This document shows, piece after piece, positions 15,783 through 64,000 of a stretch of 64,000 nucleotides of DNA (positions are counted from its first letter, which is position 1; each line of letters opens with the position of its first letter). The DNA comes from a phage: assembly GCA_018015315.1 (NCBI GenBank), contig GCA_018015315.1_3629.1; one strand, written 5' to 3'. The translations under genes were made by a program, and so were the position numbers. The notes under the pieces were generated by a model. It ran no database searches and had not been told where the DNA came from. It saw only the letters and a list, made by a program, of their open reading frames with translations.

Positions 15783-15859
15783 TGGTCTCCACGGAGTGAT
15801 TCGAACACTCGACCTCCTGATCCCAAATCAGGCGCTCTACCAAGCTGAGCTACGCGGAG
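15783..15859 (-). tRNA. tRNA-Pro (anticodon TGG)
   Basis: cloverleaf by eye: 7-bp acceptor stem (one G-T), anticodon loop TTTGGGA, T-loop TTCGAAT, encoded CCA. Confidence 0.8.
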
Positions 15860-15870
15860 TATTTACTATT

Positions 15871-15945
15871 TGGTGGCCCTGGGTGGAATTGAACCACCGT
15901 CTGGCGATTATGAGTCGCTTGCTTGAACCTTCCAGCTACAGGGCC
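15871..15945 (-). tRNA. tRNA-Met (anticodon CAT; initiator, elongator or Ile-lysidine not distinguishable)
   Basis: perfect 7-bp acceptor GGCCCTG/CAGGGCC, loop CTCATAA, T-loop TTCAATT, encoded CCA. Confidence 0.8.
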
Positions 15946-15946
15946 T

Positions 15947-16022
15947 TGGTGCTGATGGCAGGACTTGAACCTGCAACATATTGATTACAAATCAATTGCA
16001 CTACCAATTGTGCTACATCAGC
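15947..16022 (-). tRNA. tRNA-Thr (anticodon TGT)
   Basis: acceptor GCTGATG/CATCAGC, anticodon loop TTTGTAA, T-loop TTCAAGT, encoded CCA. Confidence 0.8.
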
Positions 16023-16029
16023 AAAAAGG

Positions 16030-16126
16030 TGCTAGGTGATGGAATCGAACCATCTATGTATTCAACGACTACCTCGTCTATTTTCAGGATTAAAAATCCT
16101 CGCCCTTGCCAAAGGGCTTACCTAGC
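16030..16126 (-). tRNA. atypical type-II tRNA-like gene (Leu-like scaffold, apparent anticodon TTT)
   Basis: perfect acceptor GCTAGGT/ACCTAGC, D-arm, perfect T-arm GATGG-TTCGATT-CCATC, discriminator A; anticodon hairpin AGGATTTTTAATCCT; about 30-nt variable region with GACGA/TCGTT hairpin; CCA not encoded. Confidence 0.45.
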
Positions 16127-16224
16127 TCAGTATGTTGACCATGTTGCTAGTCGGCGATGACGACTGTAACATTTGATAATCCGGTTCTGCTTCCGGCTTT
16201 CGCTTAATTACAAGGTCAACAATG

Positions 16225-16315
16225 TGGCAGAGGATAATGGAATCGAACCATCATCGAGTCATCCTCAACGGGACGGTTTTCAAGACCGCTTGAGCACCAT
16301 TGCTCCCTACCCTCT
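16225..16315 (-). tRNA. tRNA-Ser (anticodon TGA)
   Basis: type-II: acceptor AGAGGGT/ATCCTCT, anticodon loop CTTGAAA, about 20-nt variable arm, discriminator G, encoded CCA. Confidence 0.7.
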
Positions 16316-16432
16316 TTTATTATAAACAATACTGATAATGACACTGATTTTCGAGCAGTTAGTGACTAGTATAAACGACGATAAATACCAATGCCATTAT
16401 CTGTATGATTTATGCATCTAAAAATATAAATT

Positions 16433-16519
16433 TGGTGGGGAGTGGTGGAGTCGAACCACCCGAGTCGCAATGACAATAGATTTACAGTCTACACCGCTAC
16501 CTCTACGGGATAACTCCCC
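16433..16519 (-). tRNA. tRNA-Tyr (anticodon GTA)
   Basis: type-II: acceptor GGGGAGT/ACTCCCC, anticodon loop CTGTAAA, long variable arm, discriminator A, encoded CCA. Confidence 0.8.
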
Positions 16520-16523
16520 AATT

Positions 16524-16598
16524 TGGCACCCCGTACTGGACTCGAACCAGTGTCAACGGCTTAGAAGGCCGCTGCTTTATCCACTAAGCTAACAGGGC
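16524..16598 (-). tRNA. tRNA-Arg (anticodon TCT)
   Basis: anticodon stem-loop GCGGC-CTTCTAA-GCCGT, T-arm ACTGG-TTCGAGT-CCAGT, acceptor with two G-T pairs, encoded CCA. Confidence 0.75.
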
Positions 16599-51443: not shown

Positions 51444-51472
51444 TTGACACAATGCTTCAGCTATAGTATTAT
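51444..51472 (+). promoter_or_regulatory. sigma70-like promoter upstream of hpf-like gene
   Basis: TTGACA-17 bp-TATTAT, then leader hairpin AGAGAGA..TCTCTCT and AAAGGAG RBS. Confidence 0.5.
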
Positions 51473-51524
51473 TGTTTTCAAAGAGAGATGGTTGTTACTC
51501 TCTCTTCCTTAAAAGGAGCACGTT

Positions 51525-51842
51525 ATGCAAATTGAAATCACTGGCAACGTAGAAATCACTGAAGGTATGGTGTCTTTCATTTCCCACAAAATGTCTAAGC
51601 TGGAGCGTTTGCACCCATCTGCCAACTATGCACGTGTGAGTGTAAAAGTTGAAAATGATCACCAGGAAGTCATGGCGTTCATTTTTGACACTTCCGGAAA
51701 AGAAGTTATTGCCAAAGCTAAAGGCAGTGACGCTTACGAGGCAACTGACCGTATGGTAGATGTTGCAGCACGTCAGTTGGCTAAATGCGGTGGAAAGAAA
51801 GGTAAAGGGAAAGGCAAAGTAAAGATTGACTTTGGAGAATGA
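51525..51842 (+). CDS. hpf: ribosome hibernation promoting factor / RaiA-family homolog
   Basis: MQIEITGNVEITEGM closely matches E. coli HPF N-terminus MQLNITGNNVEITEA (from memory); about 100 aa; basic Gly/Lys tail. Confidence 0.7.
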   Translation: MQIEITGNVEITEGMVSFISHKMSKLERLHPSANYARVSVKVENDHQEVMAFIFDTSGKEVIAKAKGSDAYEATDRMVDVAARQLAKCGGKKGKGKGKVKIDFGE

Positions 51843-55789: not shown

Positions 55790-56116
55790 ATGGGTATACC
55801 GATCACTGTAAAAGAATTGAATGAACGTGATGCAGGTGGTCTATGGCCTGCACGAAAAATACGCTGCGTCTACATGAAAGAGAACCTTGAACATCTTGAT
55901 CAACAGATCAAGGTCGGTGATATTTTCGAGGTCTTCTATTCCAATCGTCGCAACTGGGAAACCATTCAGCCTTCTGGTTTTGTTCTTGCCAAACTTGACA
56001 CTGGAGAAGTGATTATCCCAGGGTTGGATATTGTCTTCGAAATTATCCAGGAGTGGGATCCGGATAAGATTAGATATGAAGAGTTATTCGGTGAAGGTAT
56101 TATCAAACCTGTGTGA
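55790..56116 (+). CDS. hypothetical protein
   Basis: 108 aa; GGAGA RBS. Confidence 0.45.
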   Translation: MGIPITVKELNERDAGGLWPARKIRCVYMKENLEHLDQQIKVGDIFEVFYSNRRNWETIQPSGFVLAKLDTGEVIIPGLDIVFEIIQEWDPDKIRYEELFGEGIIKPV

Positions 56117-56424
56117 GGTGGATTATGTCTACAAAGACGGCTAAATACTCCTACATGCCATCAACCTCTGCAGAGGTAGATTTTAGTTTCGATGTGTTTC
56201 CACTGTTTGAGGTGGTTCTGGCATACCCAACAATACTATCTACTCCGGAATCACTTGTGCCTGTTAAGTTGCAGAACGCCATGCATTCTATGCACTACAA
56301 CAATAAATGCAGGCACAGATGGTGTCAGGACGAGGAAAAAGATCTGGATAGTTTGAGAGATTTTGACAGTCACCTTTTGACACCTTTCAGCTACTCCAAC
56401 CTTGATAAGCCATCATGGGTATAG
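56113..56424 (+). CDS. hypothetical protein
   Basis: 103 aa; terminator downstream. Confidence 0.4.
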   Translation: MRWIMSTKTAKYSYMPSTSAEVDFSFDVFPLFEVVLAYPTILSTPESLVPVKLQNAMHSMHYNNKCRHRWCQDEEKDLDSLRDFDSHLLTPFSYSNLDKPSWV

Positions 56425-56448
56425 CAAAATATCAAATTTAAGACACCT

Positions 56449-56479
56449 AGGACGCTCTGTGGCGTCCTTTTCTTTATTT
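56449..56479 (+). terminator. rho-independent terminator
   Basis: AGGACGC-TCTGTG-GCGTCCT followed by TTTTCTTTATTT. Confidence 0.65.
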
Positions 56480-56637
56480 AGTGCACGATTGCATACCTTG
56501 GACAGATAATCTCATTACAGAGCGTTTAAGAGCTTCCTACAAACAACTCCATATTTCGAGCGTAGCGAGAACGCACGTCCGTTTTGACCCAAATCACCAT
56601 ACGCTCGGATTTTAACCAAACCCTCGCGGCGTTTCTG

Positions 56638-56666
56638 TTGACACATTATCGCTCCAGTGATAATAT
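56638..56666 (+). promoter_or_regulatory. sigma70-like promoter
   Basis: TTGACA-17 bp-TAATAT; lies inside track ORF 56584-56997. Confidence 0.5.
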
Positions 56667-56686
56667 CCACACATCATTTGGAGAAT

Positions 56687-56788
56687 ATGGAATACACAAT
56701 GAAAACACTGTCCGAAGTTTTGGTGGTGATCCTGATGATCATTACGTCCATAGCAGCTGTTGCCGGAATACTCACGGGTGGAACATGA
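56687..56788 (+). CDS. small hydrophobic peptide (33 aa)
   Basis: ATG after GGAGA (short spacing); single TM-like segment; stop overlaps next ATG. Confidence 0.3.
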   Translation: MEYTMKTLSEVLVVILMIITSIAAVAGILTGGT

Positions 56789-56997
56789 TCAACACACATG
56801 TATCTGAAGAGACATCCGAAGGAGTTACCATATGTCCATTGGCTGAGCCAGTGAAAGAGGAAAACTTCGATTCTGATGACTCTTCATCTTCGCTCCAGGT
56901 AGACCCTGAGGCTGATGACCTGACGTGGGAAGACATCGTAGATATCTGGTTCTCTATTATGCCTGAGCACGAAGAGTTCAGGGGCGGTAGACTATGA
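56785..56997 (+). CDS. small acidic protein
   Basis: 69 aa; C-terminal part of track ORF 56584-56997, restarted downstream of promoter. Confidence 0.4.
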   Translation: MINTHVSEETSEGVTICPLAEPVKEENFDSDDSSSSLQVDPEADDLTWEDIVDIWFSIMPEHEEFRGGRL

Positions 56998-57117
56998 AGC
57001 ACCGAGCCCACACAGGTTCCTCATGCTAAAGCATGGCCTGAAGAGGCAAACGTGCATAATTCCTGTGCATTGTGACGTATAAAACCCGTTCACACTCTCA
57101 TTTCCAGAGGAGATTTC

Positions 57118-57333
57118 ATGAAGATAGAAATATTTGGTGGAGTTGACAACACTCGTGGCCTGATTTACCTTGAATTCGATGAATCATACCTGCCAGAGGT
57201 GTTAAATATAGACTCTGTTGCTGAGGCTTTGGGAGTAAACCCTAAAGAACTCCACTCTTGTGCTGAGATCGATGGTTGGGAAGAGACCATGAACATTGAT
57301 TTCAGTGAAGTAGAGGATGAACCGCTGGACTGA
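57118..57333 (+). CDS. small acidic protein
   Basis: MKIEIFGG N-terminus like other family members; last plus-strand gene before non-coding region. Confidence 0.45.
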   Translation: MKIEIFGGVDNTRGLIYLEFDESYLPEVLNIDSVAEALGVNPKELHSCAEIDGWEETMNIDFSEVEDEPLD

Positions 57334-57683
57334 CACACAATTAGCTGCCAGGCTAAAGTGCTGGAAGCACCTATAACACATCTTTCAACTAAATTTCCTA
57401 CCACCACAATCACTTACCTCCCACACATGACTGTTTGCTTGTTTAGTGAGCAGTCATGCCTTGACATTCTTGCCTATCCTGATAAAATTAAGTTCTTCTC
57501 TTTTCTTTTACCGAGTAATTCGGGTTTTCTGTTCTCTTCGGTTTGAAGGGGTATGGAGATACACCTGAGTGAACAGGGTGAACAACCGAACATTTGGCTA
57601 TGGCATTAGCATGGCGAAGCGGACGGGTGACGAAAGAGGGGCCGGAGGACACCAGTCACTGCCATATGGTATATGGGTGATAA

Positions 57684-58224
57684 CCTGAAGAGTCTGAATA
57701 AGTGTTTAAGTACCAGTCAGAGGAAAAGGTGAATGGTAGCCGAAGGGGGAGGGGGGTTTCTTGTATCTTTAATTTGTATATTATGTATACACTTGTAAAC
57801 CAATCTCATTTGAATTTGTTTACCACACAAAGTGGATAGAGACAAATATTACCTATTAAACTTGAATTATTTATAGAAAATACCACAACACTACTTAAGT
57901 CTTTGATTTTACACACAAATCCTGCAGATATTCACCCTCCATATTTAACATACTTGTAACATATTCCATACTCTACCTGCCCGATCAATTCACCCAACTA
58001 CATCCCCATATTTTCCCTGTCTGTACTACCCCTGCCCCGCCGGGAGTCCCGTCATATCTGGCTTTCCAGCAAATATCACACCCACAAATATCATTGCCTG
58101 AAGAGGGTTTCATCCCATAGTACATGCCTTACCTGAAGAGCGCTTCATATACCCCGTAAATTTTTTAATTGACACCCTCCCCGCCGCCGGAGGGGGTTGG
58201 CTTTTCCCACACAGACCTGAAGAG
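57684..58224 (+). repeat. dispersed direct repeat CCTGAAGAG (4 copies)
   Basis: exact 9-mers at 57684, 58097, 58132, 58216 in non-coding DNA. Confidence 0.7.
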
Positions 58225-58785
58225 CCAGCCAGAAATATCTGAACAGGTCCAGCTATGCCACGATTTTGTGCTTGTCCTACAGGAGTGCTTCCCTGTCAGG
58301 AGCCGGTAGCGACTGGAGTGCTGCCAGGCGGACGAAATGGGAATACTTCTCATTCTTATAACAATTCTCAAATATCGAGGCAGTGAGACAAATTAATAGG
58401 CTTTGCCGTTCACACAATGGCACAACATTTGCAGCCTATCTTGTGGGGGGTGAATGAGAATACCTATCATTGCGAGAATAGTTATCATTACGGGCAATTT
58501 AACATAATACCCATTATGCGCACCACTGGCGATATATACAGGGGTTAATAACATGGTGGACTGTTTACGCACATTACAATTGCATTACTTATTATTTGTG
58601 TGGGATATAGTTAGCCACCAACAGATTGCATAATAACCTGCAGACTTCCAGCCGTCCAGACGCCTAAGCGCCTACACAATAAGGATTATACATACACAAC
58701 TGAATGTAAACAGGGCCGCAAAAATGCTACCATACAAGATTGTAAATTTTTCATGCAGCACTTGACAAAGAGGAGAAAAACTTGT

Positions 58786-58875
58786 CTGACATACTGGTGA
58801 CATAATATGACACTTTAGACACAATAGTGACATACTGGACACGATATGACACACTGGGCATAATTGACATACCTG
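58786..58875 (+). repeat. iteron-like array of (A/T)GACA(C/T)A motifs at 10-11 bp spacing
   Basis: about 8 copies, including TGACATACTGG twice and TGACACACTGG once. Confidence 0.7.
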
Positions 58876-58983
58876 ACTGTTTACGCTGTCACTATTCACT
58901 CGCTTACATGCTTAATAGACTACATGACTAATAGTTTACATAGCTAACTGTTCACGTATAGATTGTTTACTTAAAAATGATAA

Positions 58984-59264
58984 GCCATGCCATTCGTTTG
59001 CATGATAAAGATTAGCAAGTTAATAATCTTTCACTGGCTATGCCAGGTGACCTTTTGTCACCTCTTCGGGTGTTTCTATGACATAATATAAAAGCAGGGC
59101 AACTATTAGCAGATCTATAGTTGCCTTGCTTGTTATGTCATGATTAACTAAATACAAGGCAACTATGATCTGATTAATAGATTGCAGACAAACTATCACG
59201 GGGGTGATGGTTACTGCTTTTATATTATGTCGCGACTCCGTCGCGCCATGCCATTCGTTTGCAT
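58984..59264 (+). repeat. 20-bp perfect direct repeat GCCATGCCATTCGTTTGCAT (2 copies)
   Basis: copies at 58984-59003 and 59245-59264. Confidence 0.8.
59098..59125. repeat. palindrome GGCAACTAT-10 bp-ATAGTTGCC
   Basis: 9-bp inverted repeat; further half-site copies near 59160 and 59265. Confidence 0.75.
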
Positions 59265-59880
59265 AGTTGCCTTATTGTTACAGATAAAATAATTATATTG
59301 TTAATTATTTCTTATCTTTCTCTTAGTCATCTAATGATTCCAGTCAGTATAGTAATGTACAGTAAACATTAGACGACTAAAGATTTATCTGCTTATAATA
59401 ACTTACCGTGACAATTCCGGACTGTTTACGAAAAATGTTGACACCTGAGCTGATTTATGTTATGCAATTTACACGAATAATTATTTTATGCAGGTATTGA
59501 CTATTACGTTATTCTATGGTCGGAATAAATACTTAGCGGACTATAGAATGGTGACGCTACGTGAATTCTGGAATTTAGTGGCTATAGTTATACCCGATTT
59601 TTCACGTAGAACACGCTTTTGTGGTTATGTAAGTGTATGACTTATAAAGATTTTTAGTTGTTGACAAGGCACTGAAGATATGCATCAGGTTAAATTTTGT
59701 GCAATAGCTGCATTACGTGCAATTTTGGAAGGAAAAACGTGTAAAAATGGCCCTGCTACCACACAATGAAAGATTATGCAATAGCTATTTTACATGTATA
59801 TTTGTACAGTGTGTGGGATTGATGGCTAGTCAATTATTCCACTTGCCAGGCTGGGCCGTTTGTGGTAGGAGAAATACAGA

Positions 59881-59909
59881 CAAAAAGAAAGGGGCCTTTT
59901 AAAGCCCCT
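59881..59909 (-). terminator. rho-independent terminator
   Basis: GGGGC..GCCCC hairpin followed by U-tract on minus strand; 20 bp downstream of stop of 59928-60347. Confidence 0.6.
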
Positions 59910-59927
59910 GATAGTTTAGTTAAGAAA

Positions 59928-60347
59928 TTATAATGATTCGTATATTTGATAGATTCGATTTGCCAGGTCATTACGATAGCGGAATTTTTCATCACGCTTG
60001 ATCATCAGATCTTTGAAGCCATATTCTTTAAGCACTTCATTAACTTTATAGCGGCATACCTTCATATTATCTTGCGCGTCACCGATAAACTTGTTGCTAT
60101 GATGCATGGCTTTGATCTCTTCCTCCAGGACCAGGGCAACTACGCGGACCGGATCAAGCTGATATGCGGTAACATCAATGCGGCATTGTAAACGGCTTTT
60201 AACGTCTGCCACCGGATATACTGCAACCTCTTCCCCGTCAACATTCACAATAACCAGTTTACCATCAATTTCAAAACCTTTTGCGGCTGGGCCGTGACAA
60301 AAAGCGTTATCAAAGCTGTATGCGGGATTGTTAGATTTAATATTCAT
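59928..60347 (-). CDS. hypothetical protein
   Basis: 139 aa; own promoter and terminator. Confidence 0.5.
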   Translation of the reverse strand: MNIKSNNPAYSFDNAFCHGPAAKGFEIDGKLVIVNVDGEEVAVYPVADVKSRLQCRIDVTAYQLDPVRVVALVLEEEIKAMHHSNKFIGDAQDNMKVCRYKVNEVLKEYGFKDLMIKRDEKFRYRNDLANRIYQIYESL

Positions 60348-60393
60348 GGTGTTTACCTCTTAGATAATTTTCTTACAACTTCCCTTCAAAAAG

Positions 60394-60422
60394 AATATAG
60401 CAAAACTGCCGATCCCTGTCAA
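60394..60422 (-). promoter_or_regulatory. sigma70-like promoter
   Basis: minus-strand TTGACA-17 bp-TATATT. Confidence 0.5.
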
Positions 60423-60483
60423 CAAGGGATAGCATAATTTTTGTGTGGGCAATAGGGGCCGTAGCCCCTGGTTGTATCGCCTG

Positions 60484-60747
60484 TTATTTGTTATTCATCC
60501 AGTTTTCCCAAGATGCCTGATACTCGGCCTCACTGCGGCGGATCTCTTCTTGTTCTGCAAGGCGGATCTCTTCTTCCAGGTAGCCTAAGATGTCAGCTTT
60601 TTTGGTCTGGCGTAACATCCAATCGTCCTTTTTGCGAGTAAAGATTTTATATGCTTTCTCACAAACTTCTTTTTTGCTACCTTTCTGTACTTCAAGGATA
60701 CGGTAGGCCATGTATTGAACTAATTTAAGTTGGTCGATACGTTTCAT
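60484..60747 (-). CDS. hypothetical protein
   Basis: 87 aa ORF. Confidence 0.45.
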   Translation of the reverse strand: MKRIDQLKLVQYMAYRILEVQKGSKKEVCEKAYKIFTRKKDDWMLRQTKKADILGYLEEEIRLAEQEEIRRSEAEYQASWENWMNNK

Positions 60748-60806
60748 GATGTTTTCCTCTTTTGTGGTCTTGATTAGTGGGCCTTCCGGCCCGTGTCATT
60801 ATCTTA

Positions 60807-61079
60807 TTACTTACGGCGGCAGAATTCAAGGGTTTTTAATTGATAATCTTCCTCGGCCTGGAGTACAACCGCCTCGATCATTTCGTTGGCATTGTTGAAG
60901 CCATAACCTTTAGCGAACTCATCCGCACCACCTTTGTGATCATGTTCTGCGTTCATCGCTTCCACAAAATGGAATTCCAGATTGTTAAGGTATGGGCTTG
61001 ATGTTCCGTCCTCTTTTTCGATGAGATCCCAAATAGCATTAAAACGTGATTCGACTTCTTGATTAATCCAGCTTGACAT
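60807..61079 (-). CDS. hypothetical acidic protein
   Basis: 90 aa; GAGAGAGGAAAA RBS. Confidence 0.45.
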   Translation of the reverse strand: MSSWINQEVESRFNAIWDLIEKEDGTSSPYLNNLEFHFVEAMNAEHDHKGGADEFAKGYGFNNANEMIEAVVLQAEEDYQLKTLEFCRRK

Positions 61080-61244
61080 AATGTTTTCCTCTCTCCTGGT
61101 TGTTGTGTGGGCACCTTTGCCCCTTCAAGATAAATGTTAACTCACTTATCGAAAGGTGTCAACGGTTTTTATAGTTCTTATATGACAGGCAGGCCCGGTG
61201 ATTGTCTCCCCCCGTCGCCAGGTGCCTGCCGTATAATAAGTATA

Positions 61245-61276
61245 ACAAAAAACAGGACCATTGCAAGCCCTGTTTT
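61245..61276 (-). terminator. rho-independent terminator
   Basis: AACAGG..CCTGTT hairpin with T-runs on both strands. Confidence 0.5.
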
Positions 61277-61283
61277 GTAAAGA

Positions 61284-61487
61284 TTAGATGATCTGCATAT
61301 CCTCCACGATAATTTCTAATTTACAAACAAGATGATCTAAGCTCCCTGATAAAAATGATTCCGATACATAACCGCCATCGGATACTGTAGCAAGGATCTC
61401 TCCATTTGCTTGCTCTTTGATTTGAACGTCTAGGCGGTTAGCCTTTGCTTTGTTCAGGACGGCAATCAGGCGGTTAGCTGTAGTCAT
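61284..61487 (-). CDS. small protein, early-gene paralog group
   Basis: 67 aa; GGAAGG RBS; conserved leader GTAGGGCGGC upstream. Confidence 0.45.
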   Translation of the reverse strand: MTTANRLIAVLNKAKANRLDVQIKEQANGEILATVSDGGYVSESFLSGSLDHLVCKLEIIVEDMQII

Positions 61488-61570
61488 GGTTTTTCCTTCC
61501 AGTGGTTAGCGGCACCATTGCCGCCCTACAAAACACATCTTACACTATCCGGCACATCATGCAAGCTATT

Positions 61571-61762
61571 TTAAATCTTATCGCCAATATAATCTGATCT
61601 ATTCTTCTCTGTCATGCGTTTAAGCAATTCTTGCATATGGCTGATAGCTTGTAGCGTGTCTTCTTCCAGGCTTGAATCTACATAATCAGGATCGTCTATC
61701 ACCTTTCTATGATTATGATAACGCAGTACTGCTAATACCTTTCTGACTTGTTCAGTATTCAT
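61571..61762 (-). CDS. hypothetical protein
   Basis: 63 aa ORF. Confidence 0.4.
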   Translation of the reverse strand: MNTEQVRKVLAVLRYHNHRKVIDDPDYVDSSLEEDTLQAISHMQELLKRMTEKNRSDYIGDKI

Positions 61763-61778
61763 TTTACATCGCCCTTGC

Positions 61779-62069
61779 TTATTGTTGGCGGTTTACATAA
61801 GCTTTACCGTTTACCGTCATCGGCAGATCTTCCAGGTTTGGATCTTCCTTAAGGTCGCGCGCAAGCTCACCGCACCGGATACCCTCGAATCCGTAGTACT
61901 CTGTTGTACCGTCATTAAAAGTTTTAGCGGCAAGGCATAAGCGATAAGTAACCCCGATTTGATTGACGGCATGGATATCCGTTAGATCAACCTCTTTTGC
62001 CAGCTCTTTAGCCATTACAGGTGCGTTAAGTCCAACAACCAGGGCAACTACTGCGATCATCTTTTTCAT
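61779..62069 (-). CDS. secreted protein with signal peptide
   Basis: N-terminal MKKMIAVVALVVGLNAPVMA signal-like segment. Confidence 0.5.
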   Translation of the reverse strand: MKKMIAVVALVVGLNAPVMAKELAKEVDLTDIHAVNQIGVTYRLCLAAKTFNDGTTEYYGFEGIRCGELARDLKEDPNLEDLPMTVNGKAYVNRQQ

Positions 62070-62216
62070 TGTGTCTAGCCTCTTTCCGCTACGTTTAAGG
62101 CGGCGGTAACCGCCTGTTTATGCTTTGTTGGTTAATTTTCAGGTATCGCTATAAATTAAACTATGCTGTACGCTCAACTATAACAACGGTTTGGGGGATC
62201 TCACCTTCCACCACTA

Positions 62217-62375
62217 TCAAGGCTTTTTCTGCGTGATGGATATCTTTACCCGTTGCAGTGTGGCGGTGAAGTCTTTCATTTCGTCACGTGGTGTTTTAGT
62301 GCAATGCCAGATCTCAGGCTTACCTATTTGCAAGCCGCGTAAAAATTCTGTTTTGCCTGTTTTGTTAGTGATCAT
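62217..62375 (-). CDS. small protein (52 aa)
   Basis: minus-strand ORF with AAGGTG RBS; preferred over antisense track ORF 62191-62409. Confidence 0.3.
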   Translation of the reverse strand: MITNKTGKTEFLRGLQIGKPEIWHCTKTPRDEMKDFTATLQRVKISITQKKP

Positions 62376-62385
62376 TTGTTACACC

Positions 62386-62490
62386 TTAACCGATACCATT
62401 GGAAGATAGGATCATGTTAGCCAGAGTCGCAACCACTCCAACCGATAACACCAGGCCCACTATTACAACCGTGAAAATTTTCTCTAACAT
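62386..62490 (-). CDS. small hydrophobic peptide (34 aa)
   Basis: GAGGG RBS; single TM-like segment. Confidence 0.3.
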   Translation of the reverse strand: MLEKIFTVVIVGLVLSVGVVATLANMILSSNGIG

Positions 62491-62532
62491 GATTCTACCC
62501 TCATTGATGGGCGTTACTGCCCCGCTTATGGT

Positions 62533-62769
62533 TTATTGATTGATGTTATAATGAAAGTTATTTTCTTCAGTAGCTTTTAAAATAAAAGCCGTGATCGCTT
62601 TTGTGTCTACTTGTTCGAACGTATCAGAATAGCACCAATAATAATCATCCCCTACTTTCGGCGGGTAAACCTGGACAAGGAGATCGCCACCTGGTTGATC
62701 TATAATCTCAACATGCAAGCCGGATGATTCAGCGGTTTTAACGGCGGTTAATACTGTTGCAATACTCAT
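62533..62769 (-). CDS. small protein, early-gene paralog group
   Basis: 78 aa; conserved leader upstream. Confidence 0.45.
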   Translation of the reverse strand: MSIATVLTAVKTAESSGLHVEIIDQPGGDLLVQVYPPKVGDDYYWCYSDTFEQVDTKAITAFILKATEENNFHYNINQ

Positions 62770-62849
62770 AATCTTTTCCTTTCCGATGTGGGGGCGTTGC
62801 CTTATTGCCCCGCCCTACGAAATACATTCTATCAGATAACAAATTATCG

Positions 62850-62996
62850 TTAAGATTTATTTTTTACTTCCCAAACGGAAAATTCACTACCTATCGGGAG
62901 CATTCTTTTAATCTTGTTTGCTGCCGCTACCAGATCCACGGCTTGCACTGTAATAATATAACCAATTGTCGAGGCTGTTGCGTTGAAAGTTTTCAT
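62850..62996 (-). CDS. small protein
   Basis: internal ATG (MKTFNATAS) with AGAGGA RBS downstream of promoter. Confidence 0.4.
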   Translation of the reverse strand: MKTFNATASTIGYIITVQAVDLVAAANKIKRMLPIGSEFSVWEVKNKS

Positions 62997-63067
62997 TATA
63001 TTATCCTCTAATCCAGGCCGCCCTACGTGATACATCTTACACTATTTGAAAATGTTGTCAAACTATT

Positions 63068-63247
63068 TTAACGATAATCATCATATGCTTTATTTACCTG
63101 GCGAATATAACATTCAAAAGCCAGATCAATAGATTCATATTCACGGATATATTCACCATAGGAAACCACGTACATCTTTATAGCTTCCTCATATGCTAGG
63201 AGAATAGAATCTAACCCTACGATCTCAGTCTTTGCAATAATAGCCAT
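63068..63247 (-). CDS. small protein (59 aa)
   Basis: AGAGGA RBS; TTGACA-16-TAATAT promoter upstream. Confidence 0.4.
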   Translation of the reverse strand: MAIIAKTEIVGLDSILLAYEEAIKMYVVSYGEYIREYESIDLAFECYIRQVNKAYDDYR

Positions 63248-63322
63248 GATTTTTATCCTCTTTGTGGTTGGTGGGGCTTGTTGCCCCCTTTGATTTATAT
63301 ATTACAGTCTTATATGGTCATG

Positions 63323-63556
63323 TCAACTATTTTCAAAAAATTTTTCTGCTGTGATATTCTTCCCGGTGGGGTTCGCTACTTTTAAAATTTTATCATGCAC
63401 TGGACGCCCAAAAGAATAAGATCCGTATGCAGTAAACCAATAATCGCCGTCAGGCTGTACTATTACCGCCGCATATGGTACGCCTTTCTCGTTATTGCTC
63501 ACAAAATAGATCACATTGCCATTAATAGCCTCAGCGCGTTTAATTTGTTCCATCAT
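63323..63556 (-). CDS. hypothetical protein
   Basis: 77 aa; AAGAGG RBS. Confidence 0.45.
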   Translation of the reverse strand: MMEQIKRAEAINGNVIYFVSNNEKGVPYAAVIVQPDGDYWFTAYGSYSFGRPVHDKILKVANPTGKNITAEKFFENS

Positions 63557-63618
63557 GATAATTTACCTCTTTTTATTTTCATAATCTCAGGTTAGGGGCC
63601 TTATCGGCCCCTCCAGGC

Positions 63619-63903
63619 TTATTTATTGATAGCGTGCAGCGGGAAAGGTGCGCCAGGTTGATAAATAACTTTTACAACCTCATCAGGGCAAAAGAAGTTG
63701 CAGAACTCACCCCGATAAGCTTCCTCTTCTTTCAATTCGTCATCAACATACTCGAAAAAATAATCTACGCTTGGATAGTCCTGCCCGGGGTTGTAGTCAA
63801 CCATTGTAAGCACCAGTTCAAGATCATTGCGGATGATATGCATACCCGCTTTTAAATATTTTGCTTCCATTTTTACTACATCGCCAGCGGTAACAATAGC
63901 CAT
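63619..63903 (-). CDS. hypothetical acidic protein
   Basis: 94 aa; AGGAG RBS. Confidence 0.45.
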   Translation of the reverse strand: MAIVTAGDVVKMEAKYLKAGMHIIRNDLELVLTMVDYNPGQDYPSVDYFFEYVDDELKEEEAYRGEFCNFFCPDEVVKVIYQPGAPFPLHAINK

Positions 63904-64000
63904 GGTTTTAACTCCTGTTCAGGTTAATGATTGATTGGAGGCATCACCTCCTGACAACTCCTATTATCCACATTGTCAGGCTTGATGCAAGCAATTATTT

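Follow-up and report, generated by a model that had tools for sequence, protein, structure and literature searches.

The 64,000-nucleotide stretch of DNA analysed here (the window) belongs to an rV5-like Escherichia coli phage of the genus Vequintavirus, with 96% identity to MiataMamis and 247 related records. All ten genes of the block under study match PHROGs of function unknown, and three of them, read from the minus strand, are preceded by the same short element, namely a 67-aa gene (61284-61487; PHROG 14244), a 78-aa gene (62533-62769; PHROG 20600) and a 48-aa gene (62850-62996; PHROG 29854), whose elements are called copies 1, 2 and 3 in the following. The PHROG profiles cover residues 1-67, 1-78 and 1-45, respectively, which agrees with starts at 61487, 62769 and 62996. 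A first-pass annotation had described the element as a -10 hexamer (TAAGAT or TAGAAT) followed after 7 nt by a common motif, and this proved exact in all three copies: the pattern TA(A/G)(G/A)AT-N7-GTAGGGCGG occupies 61521-61542, 62810-62831 and 63018-63039 on the minus strand and is absent from the rest of the window, with the hexamers TAAGAT (61537-61542), TAGAAT (62826-62831) and TAAGAT (63034-63039) each lying exactly 7 nt before GTAGGGCGG (61521-61529, 62810-62818 and 63018-63026).

The simplest explanation of such a recurrence would be that GC-rich words happen to lie near AT-rich hexamers, and with one mismatch allowed the 9-mer is indeed not enriched (8 matches versus 4.9 expected). 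The exact word, in contrast, is found three times where shuffles lead one to expect 0.10 (0 of 100 shuffles reach three), and the window-wide search that the annotation had proposed returned these copies and none elsewhere. The extended 22-nt pattern TARRATGTNNNNNGTAGGGCGG has three matches against 0.00 expected, all three copies lie on the coding strand, between genes and at equal distance from the gene starts, and an independent repeat search ranked the three sites first among its direct-repeat families (29 nt, with identities of 86% and 69%). Taken with the conservation of the unit in hundreds of genomes, as seen by BLAST with a 42-nt unit, the exact and 22-nt counts rule out coincidence, to which we attach practically no probability.

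The hexamers form part of predicted sigma-70 promoters, as all copies combine a -35 and a -10 element at 16 bp, within the 16-18 bp that were accepted, and keep the A2 and T6 of the -10. Two consensus-like -35 boxes at 16-17 bp had been proposed, of which TTGACA of copy 3 (63056-63061) matches at 6/6 positions and TTGCAT of copy 1 (61559-61564) only at 3/6, with TTG kept, and both stand at 16 bp. The promoter of copy 3 (63034-63061) thereby reaches 10/12 and that of copy 1 7/12 (TTG and TA...T kept), the latter being preceded by the A-rich TTTAAAATAG. Copy 2 (62826-62853) has a weak -35, TTAACG (62848-62853), and an extended -10, TGATAGAAT (62826-62834). In the orthologous promoters of relatives the -35 is mostly TTGACA, including that corresponding to copy 2 in slur16 and naswa.

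Behind the -10 the motif had been taken for a box of its own that is followed by a separate GC hairpin. According to the fold predictions, this separation does not hold, since the GGCGG of GTAGGGCGG is the 5' arm of the hairpin itself, which would start about 4 nt past the predicted transcript start. In copy 1, GTAGGGCGG would comprise nt 1-9 of the transcript if the G at 61529 is +1, as we infer, and the hairpin GGCGGCA-ATGG-TGCCGCT (61508-61525; 7 pairs, -12 kcal/mol) would begin at transcript position 5. Copy 2 has a corresponding hairpin, GGGCG..GC......GC..CGCCC (62792-62815; -14.4 to -15 kcal/mol, z = -2.2). For copy 3, the proposed hairpin was not recovered: GTAGGGCGG at 63018-63026 continues as CC|TGGATTAGAGG, the 3' arm is missing, and folding found no GC hairpin there (best fold -3.3 kcal/mol, z = +0.3). 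Copy 3 is thus a truncated unit that has lost its 3' hairpin arm; slur16 and naswa carry an intact unit, ATAGCGCGGGAATACTTCCCGCC, in front of the same gene. MiataMamis is annotated with a longer ORF for this gene, which starts inside the -10; if our reading is correct, the unit would amend such gene starts, e.g. to 62996 instead of 63035.

The remainder of the block contains kindred and divergent arrangements. The annotation had set the other TTGACA-type promoters apart as separate elements, but three of them share the leader design with differing stems (all on the minus strand): 63273-63326, with TTGACA-16-TAATAT (63299-63326), AAAG and the hairpin GGGGC-AACAA-GCCCC (63273-63287); 61109-61162, with TTGACA-17-TAACAT (61134-61162), GAAG and GGGCA-AAGG-TGCCC (61109-61122); and 63937-63990, with TTGCAT-16-GATAAT (63963-63990), GTCA and GGAGGT-GAT-GCCTCC (63937-63951). 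The promoter TTGACA-17-TATATT with TG (60394-60422, minus strand) is a counter-example without a leader hairpin. GC hairpins without a promoter also occur, namely GGGGCC-GATAA-GGCCCC without T-run between two genes (63595-63611, minus strand), GCGGGGCAGTAACGCCC before the gene of the 34-aa MLEKIF protein (62509-62525, minus strand) and one after a stop codon at 62098-62115, while the GC hairpin at 60455-60468 precedes a promoter and GGGCC-GGAA-GGCCC (60779-60792, minus strand) stands right after a weak promoter-like site, TTGAAT-17-TAAGAT.

The view of the block as a clean array of single-gene units with terminators does not survive this inventory, as most intergenic hairpins lack a T-run and no promoter of their own was found for the genes starting at 62490, 62375 and 61762. 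Two sites only resemble intrinsic terminators on this strand of the block, namely 59890-59909 and, behind the copy 1 gene, the canonical 61249-61276 (11-bp stem and T-run). The leader hairpins do not, being followed by TAACCAC, CCACATC and similar sequences instead of a T-run, nor can they be efficient terminators, because their own transcripts would be aborted. Rfam returned no relevant family in 56000-64000, with two sub-threshold hits only, both at 59875-59943, where the terminator lies.

That the leader hairpins are placed relative to the promoter became clear from a promoter-anchored scan (TTGACA-N16-18-TAnnnT) in which the motif was not used. A GC hairpin follows 40 of the 106 distinct sites recovered, and it starts 6-14 nt past the -10 in 38 of these 40 and at exactly 10-11 nt in 26. 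The pairing itself is conserved as well. In a control with leaders of near-equal length, RNAalifold on a MAFFT alignment not fitted to structure gave 8 pairs, and at 6 of these the alignment shows double changes that compensate each other. With stems of unequal length plain MAFFT (alignment A2) misaligned the 3' arms, so that a hand-built structural alignment (A3) was used instead, which, N-padded and fitted to the structure by ourselves, pairs 90.5% of its cells and contains 31 cells with double changes. The covariation score is 0.291 as compared with 0.150 in shuffles (0/500 reach 0.291), and sliding the 3' partners by 1-3 columns lowers it to 0.03-0.10. A further alignment, base-anchored and comprising 31 hairpins, was left unscored because it is circular, and no covariance model was built, as the regular-expression and promoter-anchored scans had already recovered the family. 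In relatives, the orthologous leaders of the 94-aa gene (here 63937-63990) exchange GGAGG/CCTCC for GGGGG/CCCCC at unchanged position. We conclude from these compensatory changes that the structure of the stem, rather than its sequence, is under selection. The pair table of the alignment rows weakly favours the sense-strand RNA (15 G.U versus 7 C.A cells); single-sequence fold z-scores, at -1.1 to -2.2, are too weak to carry an argument.

The unit is by no means confined to this phage. BLAST with the 42-nt unit finds it at 9-14 places per Phapecoctavirus genome, it is present also in Asteriusvirus jumbo phages, and T5-like phages hold a remnant; its parts follow in the order A-rich tract, TTGACA, -10, CAC, R-TAG, hairpin, CA-rich spacer, Shine-Dalgarno sequence (SD) and ATG. 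Among 28 distinct copies in a motif-anchored listing, 26 have a hairpin of -11 to -17 kcal/mol from transcript position 4-5. For these comparisons the GenBank phage collection took the place of IMG/VR, scans of which gave only three relevant contigs. The 42-nt query, at its low sensitivity, had no match in 5,426 E. coli genomes, and 185,579 bacterial species genomes (GTDB) yielded chance matches only, plus one phage-like contig binned in a MAG. Among homologous genes in relatives, where absence of the motif was to have spoken against the annotation, the type of unit is kept but the exact 9-mer is not bound to particular genes. The core of the annotation, one conserved unit of sigma-70-type promoter and transcribed leader before different early genes, is supported by the comparisons, in which the architecture returns tens of times among related phages with a constant spacing of promoter and hairpin and with covarying stems; three of its details are corrected.

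Several other roles of the leader were considered. T5.009 is annotated from the ATG of the loop, which prompted the idea of an upstream ORF with AGGG as SD; many copies, however, have ATAG, ACGG, ATAC or CAA loops without AUG, and the idea was discarded. Pairing of the loop with the start codon (AUGGU with ACCAU) was likewise rejected, as it is found in few copies only, and so was a terminator for antisense transcription, since the reverse-complemented hairpin of copy 1 is followed by A-rich and not by T-rich sequence.

A more serious alternative is that a factor encoded by phage or host recognises R-UAG plus hairpin, or its DNA form from +1 to +25. It might be a repressor that binds an operator and switches early promoters off, an RNA-binding protein or nuclease similar to RegA/RegB that sets the timing of translation or decay of early mRNA, or else the site might be an antitermination signal of the nut/put type that acts on RNA polymerase. 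The conservation exceeds what a generic hairpin would need, with TAGGGCGG and a loop-flanking AAUGGU recurring across stem variants; the motif is specific to phages by the genome searches above, and its fixed place at the predicted start site would suit an operator. Moreover, copy 3, Seunavirus and about 200 T5-like genomes retain the 5' arm GTAGGGCGGCAATG where the full hairpin is lost, which hints at a sequence-level role of the arm outside the stability model. A binding sequence is difficult to reconcile with the promoter-anchored set, in which the tails vary (RTAG, ATCAAG, AAAG, GAAG, GTCA), as do the loops (ATGG, TAG, CAA, ACAAG, AACAA, GGAA), and with the replacement of whole stems in orthologous leaders; such variation fits selection on structure. 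No Rfam family matched and no candidate binding protein was found. Antitermination of the nut type in particular is out, as a boxA-like element occurs in 0 leaders and gave no match on the minus strand between 59.9 and 64 kb, and the loops are not GNRA-like pentaloops. We therefore regard a recognition site, together with the factors named, as an improbable reading.

The same units mark places where relatives differ in gene content. The block 61279-61568, i.e. promoter, leader and ORF of copy 1, is an indel relative to MiataMamis, where it is missing, while Phapecoctavirus-like contigs carry it with about 95% identity. In six relatives, 0, 1 or 2 additional cassettes occupy the slot between the 59-aa and MLEKIF genes, every one of them with a unit at its head, and three genomes are identical through GTAGGGCGG and diverge directly thereafter. 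Throughout these [promoter-leader-ORF] cassettes of Vequintavirus, the junctions fall inside the unit. The 78-aa gene is bracketed by the hairpins at 62792-62815 and 62509-62525, the latter marking the 3' junction of its cassette, which is joined at GCAACGCCC on either side; the hairpin of copy 2 looks chimeric between two hairpin types, with its junction in GCAACGCCC. From the sequence comparisons, the three genes thus appear to carry one portable unit of promoter and 5' hairpin leader that marks swap points of small genes. As DNA, the promoter and GC hairpin, both of them conserved, would offer short homologies for insertion, deletion and exchange of [promoter-leader-ORF] modules, and such exchange would account for the same 9-mer before three unrelated genes as well as for the truncated copy 3 and the chimeric copy 2.

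Alternatively, the hairpins might act for the gene upstream of them, attenuating its transcription or protecting its 3' end (a role proposed for the stem-loops of PeSL, i.e. promoter-early stem-loop, cassettes), or might be mainly recombination homology. The promoter would then just happen to lie beside them, and the copies would be alike from recent recombination only, with no function in their own transcript. The location of cassette junctions in hairpins is in keeping with this, as are the equivalent promoterless hairpins after stop codons (63595-63611, 62509-62525 and 62098-62115) and the one before a promoter at 60455-60468; in addition, PeSL hairpins that lack obvious T-runs were seen to attenuate transcription in reporter assays (PMC2839356). 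However, if an efficient terminator stood 4-25 nt past its own start, it would abort the transcripts of that promoter, and the hairpins lack a T-run. The distance from -10 to hairpin is held at 10-11 nt despite unrelated spacers and stems, a sharpness that neither an upstream-only function nor drift would maintain, and the design persists in another phage genus, where the Asteriusvirus homologue of the copy 1 gene (42-46% amino acid identity) keeps TTGACA-17-TATAAT followed by ATAGAGCGGGGGAATAGTTCTCCCGCC. We consider it unlikely that this alternative is the main explanation.

From our point of view, the evidence is best accommodated by a sigma-70 early promoter fused to a structured leader at the 5' end of its transcript, which would stabilise or insulate the mRNA while the unit as a whole would serve as recombination homology, and we hold this to be reasonably probable. 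The unit would comprise five parts, i.e. an A-rich tract, the sigma-70 -35/-10 elements, a short discriminator usually ending in CAC, a start purine with UAG behind it, and, directly adjoining, a hairpin rich in GC (7-10 bp) that leads through a CA-rich single-stranded spacer to the SD and ATG. Transcription by host RNA polymerase would begin about 8 nt past the -10 hexamer, presumably early in infection, and each primary transcript would open with about 3 unpaired nt and a stable stem-loop. Such a 5'-terminal structure may shield the 5' end from 5'-end-dependent decay by RNase E, insulate the ribosome-binding site from upstream sequence, or both, and would thereby have any small ORF behind the unit strongly expressed. 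That the leader protects or insulates its mRNA is probable in this model, as cleavage by RNase E is more than 10-fold faster when the 5' end is accessible than when it is base-paired (PMC3997798), even if RNase E can bypass simple stem-loops by scanning (PMC9943677). The predicted unpaired tail would measure 3 nt with the conserved purine as +1 and 5 nt with the A two positions before it, and either length lies at the edge of what protects from RNase E, stabilisers of the ompA type having no more than about 4 unpaired nt ahead of the stem-loop. Against the favoured reading stand the similar GC hairpins between genes without a promoter and some strong promoters without a hairpin, such as that at 60394-60422; the hairpin is thus neither confined to 5' ends nor obligatory.

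Parts of this design have precedents. In the leader of T7 gene 10, a phage promoter passes straight into a 5' stem-loop, behind which come an unstructured spacer and a strong SD, an arrangement that the present unit shares in its hairpin fused to the promoter, unstructured spacer and SD. Stabilising 5'-terminal stem-loops are further described for the E. coli ompA and papA mRNAs (Emory, Bouvet and Belasco 1992, as cited in PMC3997798), and these, too, combine a stable hairpin a few nt from the 5' end (predicted in our case) with freedom of sequence as long as pairing is kept. The unit differs from the ompA and T7 stabilisers in its borderline predicted tail of 3-5 nt, in the internal occurrence of the same hairpins, in being driven by host sigma-70 polymerase and in being multi-copy and mobile.

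The closest relatives in organisation are the PeSL cassettes that T4-type phages carry (Arbiol et al. 2010, PMC2839356; Comeau et al. 2014, PMC4122927). As found here, they pack into an intergenic unit of at most about 100 bp a strong early promoter of the sigma-70 kind with its AT-rich upstream tract, a GC-rich stem-loop, an SD and an ATG; they, too, occur in many copies where small ORFs of unknown function abound, and have the junctions of single-ORF indels and replacements inside the unit, stem-loop included. PeSL cassettes are further characterised by the excision of ORF plus unit as mini-circles. Their stem-loop, however, precedes the promoter or overlaps it (between -35 and -10, or on top of the -10) and has been interpreted as a terminator of upstream transcription (PMC2839356), whereas the present hairpin stands strictly downstream of the -10, at 10-11 nt, which is the predicted 5' end of its own transcript, and is hosted by Vequintavirinae, Stephanstirmvirinae and Asteriusvirus and not by T4-type phages. 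For Vequintavirinae, sigma-70-like early promoters with UP elements have been reported that cluster among small ORFs (rV5, PMC3606486; Certrevirus CB7/CR3, PMC7344957) and resemble the unit in -35/-10 consensus, A-rich upstream tract and their block of short hypothetical ORFs; these lists end about 7 nt past the -10 and mention no conserved transcribed motif or hairpin. Full-text literature searches found neither a description of the leader or of TAGGGCGG nor transcription start data for rV5, phAPEC8, PVP-SE1 or Vequintavirinae. The lambdoid nut (boxA plus boxB) and HK022 put sites are also promoter-proximal RNA hairpins in early transcripts of phages dependent on host RNA polymerase, but the present leaders have no boxA, no GNRA-like pentaloop (the loops being ATGG or 14 nt), no two-stem put structure and no N-like protein, and they stand at +4 rather than tens of nt downstream, one per gene instead of one per operon.

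It is tempting, although clearly speculative, to see in the R-UAG-GGCGG leader not just a generic stabiliser but an 'early transcript tag' and recombination adapter shared by unrelated virulent coliphage families, i.e. Vequintavirinae, Stephanstirmvirinae and Asteriusvirus, T5-like phages keeping a remnant in their pre-early region. If so, the adapter would let ORFan cassettes cross families ready for expression, and the tag may mark early mRNAs for selective survival, or for later shut-off, during the decay of host mRNA. In this context, Srd of phage T4 stimulates RNase E. A homologue of Srd has been reported in rV5 as gp11 (PMC3606486), which we take as a lead only.

Since sigma-70 early promoters, 5' stem-loops and shuffling of the PeSL type are all known already, the wider effect of these findings is moderate. 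The unit is nevertheless a compact natural promoter-plus-5'UTR part (about 75 bp) and a possible expression element. The present analysis also suggests that a GC hairpin at the extreme 5' end of early mRNAs is a recurrent design in phages that rely on host RNA polymerase. It extends the idea of mobile regulatory cassettes, hitherto that of T4-type phages, to other families with a different internal layout. If correct, it would provide a simple rule for interpreting the large stretches of small uncharacterised genes in the genomes of rV5-like phages, Phapecoctavirus and Asteriusvirus, where each unit would mark both a transcription start and the boundary of an exchangeable cassette.

The 4 kb around the finding match 247 phage records, headed by Escherichia phage MiataMamis (96% identity) and then by many Vequintavirus (rV5-like) genomes at ~90%. 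Here, 13 small genes (34-139 aa) form one run on the minus strand at 59.9-64 kb, and all ten that were tested fall into PHROG families without known function. In rV5 (PMC3606486) and Certrevirus (PMC7344957), sigma-70-like promoters with an A-rich upstream tract cluster in such small-gene blocks and are regarded as early; neither paper mentions a conserved leader, and the rV5 promoter table (PMC3606486) stops 7 nt past the -10. Twenty-two records titled 'Campylobacter phage' (e.g., C15, A12a, C5) are also ~90% identical to the rV5-like early region and are probably mislabelled or derived from contaminating coliphages. The downstream end of the early block adjoins a stretch with few ORFs and many repeats (57400-59900), which carries a GACTGTTTACG-like 17-mer six times over, inverted repeats (several) centred on GGCAACTAT, an exact 20-nt repeat with copies 261 bp apart and, at the end away from the block, plus-strand promoter-like sites. 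It could be an origin or regulatory region; for rV5, a 'non-coding' box is reported. Far from the block, among seven tRNA genes (15783-16598), ARAGORN calls a 99-nt tRNA whose type it leaves undetermined and whose anticodon has four bases (atcc; 16028-16126, minus strand); this may be a pseudo-tRNA, intron-containing or frameshift-suppressor-like.

The 64 kb contain exactly three copies of the 9-mer GTAGGGCGG, always on the minus strand (0.10 expected from shuffles), and likewise three of the 22-nt pattern TARRATGTNNNNNGTAGGGCGG (0.00 expected); a repeat search placed these sites first among its direct-repeat families, with a length of 29 nt. The recurrence of one element before three genes, as proposed in the first-pass annotation, is hence real and far beyond chance, and the gene starts set there (61487, 62769 and 62996) are consistent with PHROG profiles. 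Copy 1 (61521-61529) has the promoter TTGCAT-16-TAAGAT, copy 3 (63018-63026) TTGACA-16-TAAGAT, and copy 2 (62810-62818) TTAACG-16-TGATAGAAT, in which an extended -10 compensates for the weak -35. The GC hairpin postulated behind each motif is predicted for copies 1 and 2 (-12 and ~-15 kcal/mol), beginning at position 4-5 of the predicted transcript, but not for copy 3 (-3.3 kcal/mol, z = +0.3). In MiataMamis (PP925834, 35725-35910), the copy 3 gene is annotated as 61 aa from an ATG in the -10 region (TAAGATG), corresponding to 62850-63035 in the window; the PHROG 29854 profile (45 positions) fits the 48 aa that begin at 62996, so that the longer frame is probably annotated from the wrong start.

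The same unit recurs many times in two Phapecoctavirus-like contigs of ~150 kb each, one of which is 96% identical to phiWec179 (genus Phapecoctavirus). It reads aaaa, TTGACA, N16-17, TAnnnT, (g)tatCAC, R, TAGGGCGG, followed by caatggtg, CCGC(C/T), cacaac, SD and ATG, with GGCGG forming the 5' arm of the hairpin. A 42-nt unit used as BLAST query matched each Phapecoctavirus genome at 9-14 places and each Vequintavirus genome at 1-4, and in 26 of 28 distinct motif-bearing copies the hairpin (-11 to -17 kcal/mol) begins at position 4-5. To remove the ascertainment bias of this motif-anchored listing, the window, MiataMamis and related loci were scanned for promoters only (exact TTGACA, 16-18 bp, TAnnnT with at least 4/6). 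A GC hairpin lies behind 40 of 106 distinct sites, starting 6-14 nt past the -10 in 38 of these and at exactly 10-11 nt in 26. GTAGGGCGG is merely the commonest member of a leader family, in which the tail may also be ATAGAGCGG, ATCAAGGCGG, ATAGGGGCG, AAAGGGGGC or GAAGGGGC, and in which stems and loops differ too. The minus-strand promoters at 63299-63326, 61134-61162 and 63963-63990, which had been set apart as a separate kind, share the design with different stem sequences; the promoter at 60394-60422 is without such a leader hairpin. The central idea of the promoter-plus-leader interpretation is right, whereas certain details are wrong.

The 3' parts of the leaders at 60745-60768, 61077-61100 and 63245-63268 form a repeat family of their own, ACCACAAAAGAGGAAAACATCATG-like, comprising CA-rich spacer, SD and ATG, so that the ribosome-binding part recurs independently of the GTAGGGCGG type. 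On the plus strand, 51444-51530 holds a promoter-like TTGACA-17-TATTAT, a hairpin 10 nt later and then SD and ATG; this is the geometry found elsewhere in the genome, except that the stem (GAGAGATGGT-tgtt-ACTCTCTCTT) is rich in GA instead of GC.

RNAalifold, run on 14 leaders close to one another in length and aligned with MAFFT in the ordinary way, predicted an 8-bp hairpin with compensatory double changes in 6 of 8 pairs. A structural alignment of 25 distinct leaders, which leans towards structure because it was hand-built and N-padded, has 90.5% of cells paired and double changes in 5 of 11 pairs (31 cells). Its covariation score of 0.291, compared with 0.150 in shuffles, was reached in 0 of 500 of them and dropped to 0.03-0.10 when partners were slid by 1-3 columns. 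Single-sequence fold z-scores were weak and were given no weight. The most telling case for selection on pairing is an orthologous one, the leader of the 94-aa gene: behind one and the same promoter and at an unchanged position, the window and MiataMamis have GGAGG..CCTCC, and six other Vequintavirus genomes have GGGGG..CCCCC.

Cassette junctions in the DNA clearly fall at these units. The copy 1 promoter, leader and 67-aa ORF as far as the terminator (61279-61568) are ~95% identical in the Phapecoctavirus-like contigs, and MiataMamis has 8 bp in their place. Overlapping this terminator is a minus-strand promoter-like site with TG (TTGCAA-16-TATACT, 61239-61266), behind which lies a long imperfect hairpin (GGCAGGCACCTGG...CCGGGCCTGCC, 61188-61230); Phapecoctavirus-like loci align with a similar stretch, the MiataMamis equivalent is annotated as a 40-aa ORF, and one could imagine a small RNA here. 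Between the 59-aa gene (63068-63247) and the 34-aa MLEKIF gene (62386-62490) lies a hyperplastic slot (region 62386-63247), which contains, among six Vequintavirus genomes, no extra small-gene cassette (O157 typing phage 14, a single unit), one (slur16, BP9) or two different ones (naswa, Mangalyan, the window), each headed by the promoter-leader unit. From the stop codon to the end of GTAGGGCGG, no difference separates typing phage 14, BP9 and naswa; directly beyond it, the three diverge. As slur16 and naswa have an intact unit (ATAGCGCGGGAATACTTCCCGCC) before the copy 3 gene, the window copy 3 (GTAGGGCGGCC joined to TGGATTAG) is a truncated recombinant. The copy 2 promoter is orthologous to the MLEKIF promoter of the relatives, and the 78-aa gene that follows it in the window (62533-62769) is preceded in Phapecoctavirus only by a promoterless hairpin, GGGGCGGCAACGCCCC; in the window, both of its joins lie within (G)CAACGCCC and leave a second hairpin (62509-62525) ahead of MLEKIF. 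Where relatives have an additional gene ahead of the 87-aa gene, the break lies immediately next to the hairpin.

Three further groups have the unit or part of it. In Asteriusvirus, the jumbo phage vB_Ec-M-J carries the design in its terminal repeat (TTGACA-16-TATAAT-agtttAC-ATCAAG-GGGAGAA-TAG-TTCTCCCC-..CTAACAAAGAGAG), and ahead of its homologue of the copy 1 gene, 42-46% identical at the amino-acid level, stand TTGACA-17-TATAAT and ATAGAGCGGGGGAATAGTTCTCCCGCC. In Seunavirus the stem is shortened and the sequence reads GTAGGGCGGCAATGGTGCC. T5 and about 200 T5-like genomes have, upstream of T5.009 (AY543070, 5020-5080) in the terminal repeat of the first-step-transfer (pre-early) DNA, the sequence TTGCGC-N18-TATTAT-ttatc(a/t)c-GTAGGGCGGCAATG; the matching 3' hairpin arm is absent at this site, no promoter is marked there in the record, and the ATG from which T5.009 is annotated lies within the GTAGGGCGGCAATG motif. 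The motif is no host sequence: the 42-nt query, of low sensitivity, gave 0 matches in 5,426 E. coli genomes, and GTDB genomes gave chance hits only, plus one phage-like contig in a MAG.

The data show that promoter and structured leader are inherited and selected as a single unit of fixed geometry. Host sigma-70 polymerase would start at the conserved purine, 8 nt past the -10 and preceded by a pyrimidine, so that R-U-A, ahead of a stable stem-loop, would form the beginning of the transcripts. The leader most likely acts at the RNA level, where the hairpin could guard against attack that depends on the 5' end and/or, in transcripts reading through from upstream, keep preceding sequence away from the neighbouring CA-rich spacer and SD. 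Base pairing of the 5' end lowers RNase E activity >10-fold (PMC3997798), and the ompA and papA mRNAs are cited as being stabilised by 5' stem-loops. However, the predicted tail of 3-5 nt is borderline for such protection, simple stem-loops can be bypassed by RNase E (PMC9943677), equivalent hairpins also occupy internal positions, and the 5' arm persists where the hairpin is lost. This last point leaves room for a sequence-specific role as an operator, a binding site or through an initial-transcribed-sequence effect. Efficient termination can be dismissed, as RNA from the unit's own promoter would be aborted, and neither the terminator scan nor the sequence revealed a T-run after the leader hairpins; identity with an intrinsic terminator, a nut/put site (by its features) or an Rfam family was rejected.

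Among described systems, the PeSL cassette of T4-type phages (PMC2839356, PMC4122927) comes closest, being alike in its components, in the genomic regions it occupies and in its part in modular shuffling. Its stem-loop, a terminator, lies between -35 and -10 or over the -10; because this defining layout differs, we do not class the unit as a PeSL. In its way of working, it may be likened to a 5' stabiliser stem-loop and to the T7 gene 10 leader. Overall, the element, undescribed in the searchable literature, is an unsurprising variation on a kind of regulatory cassette already known from phages; its distribution across families, together with the T5 remnant, provides the most intriguing loose ends.
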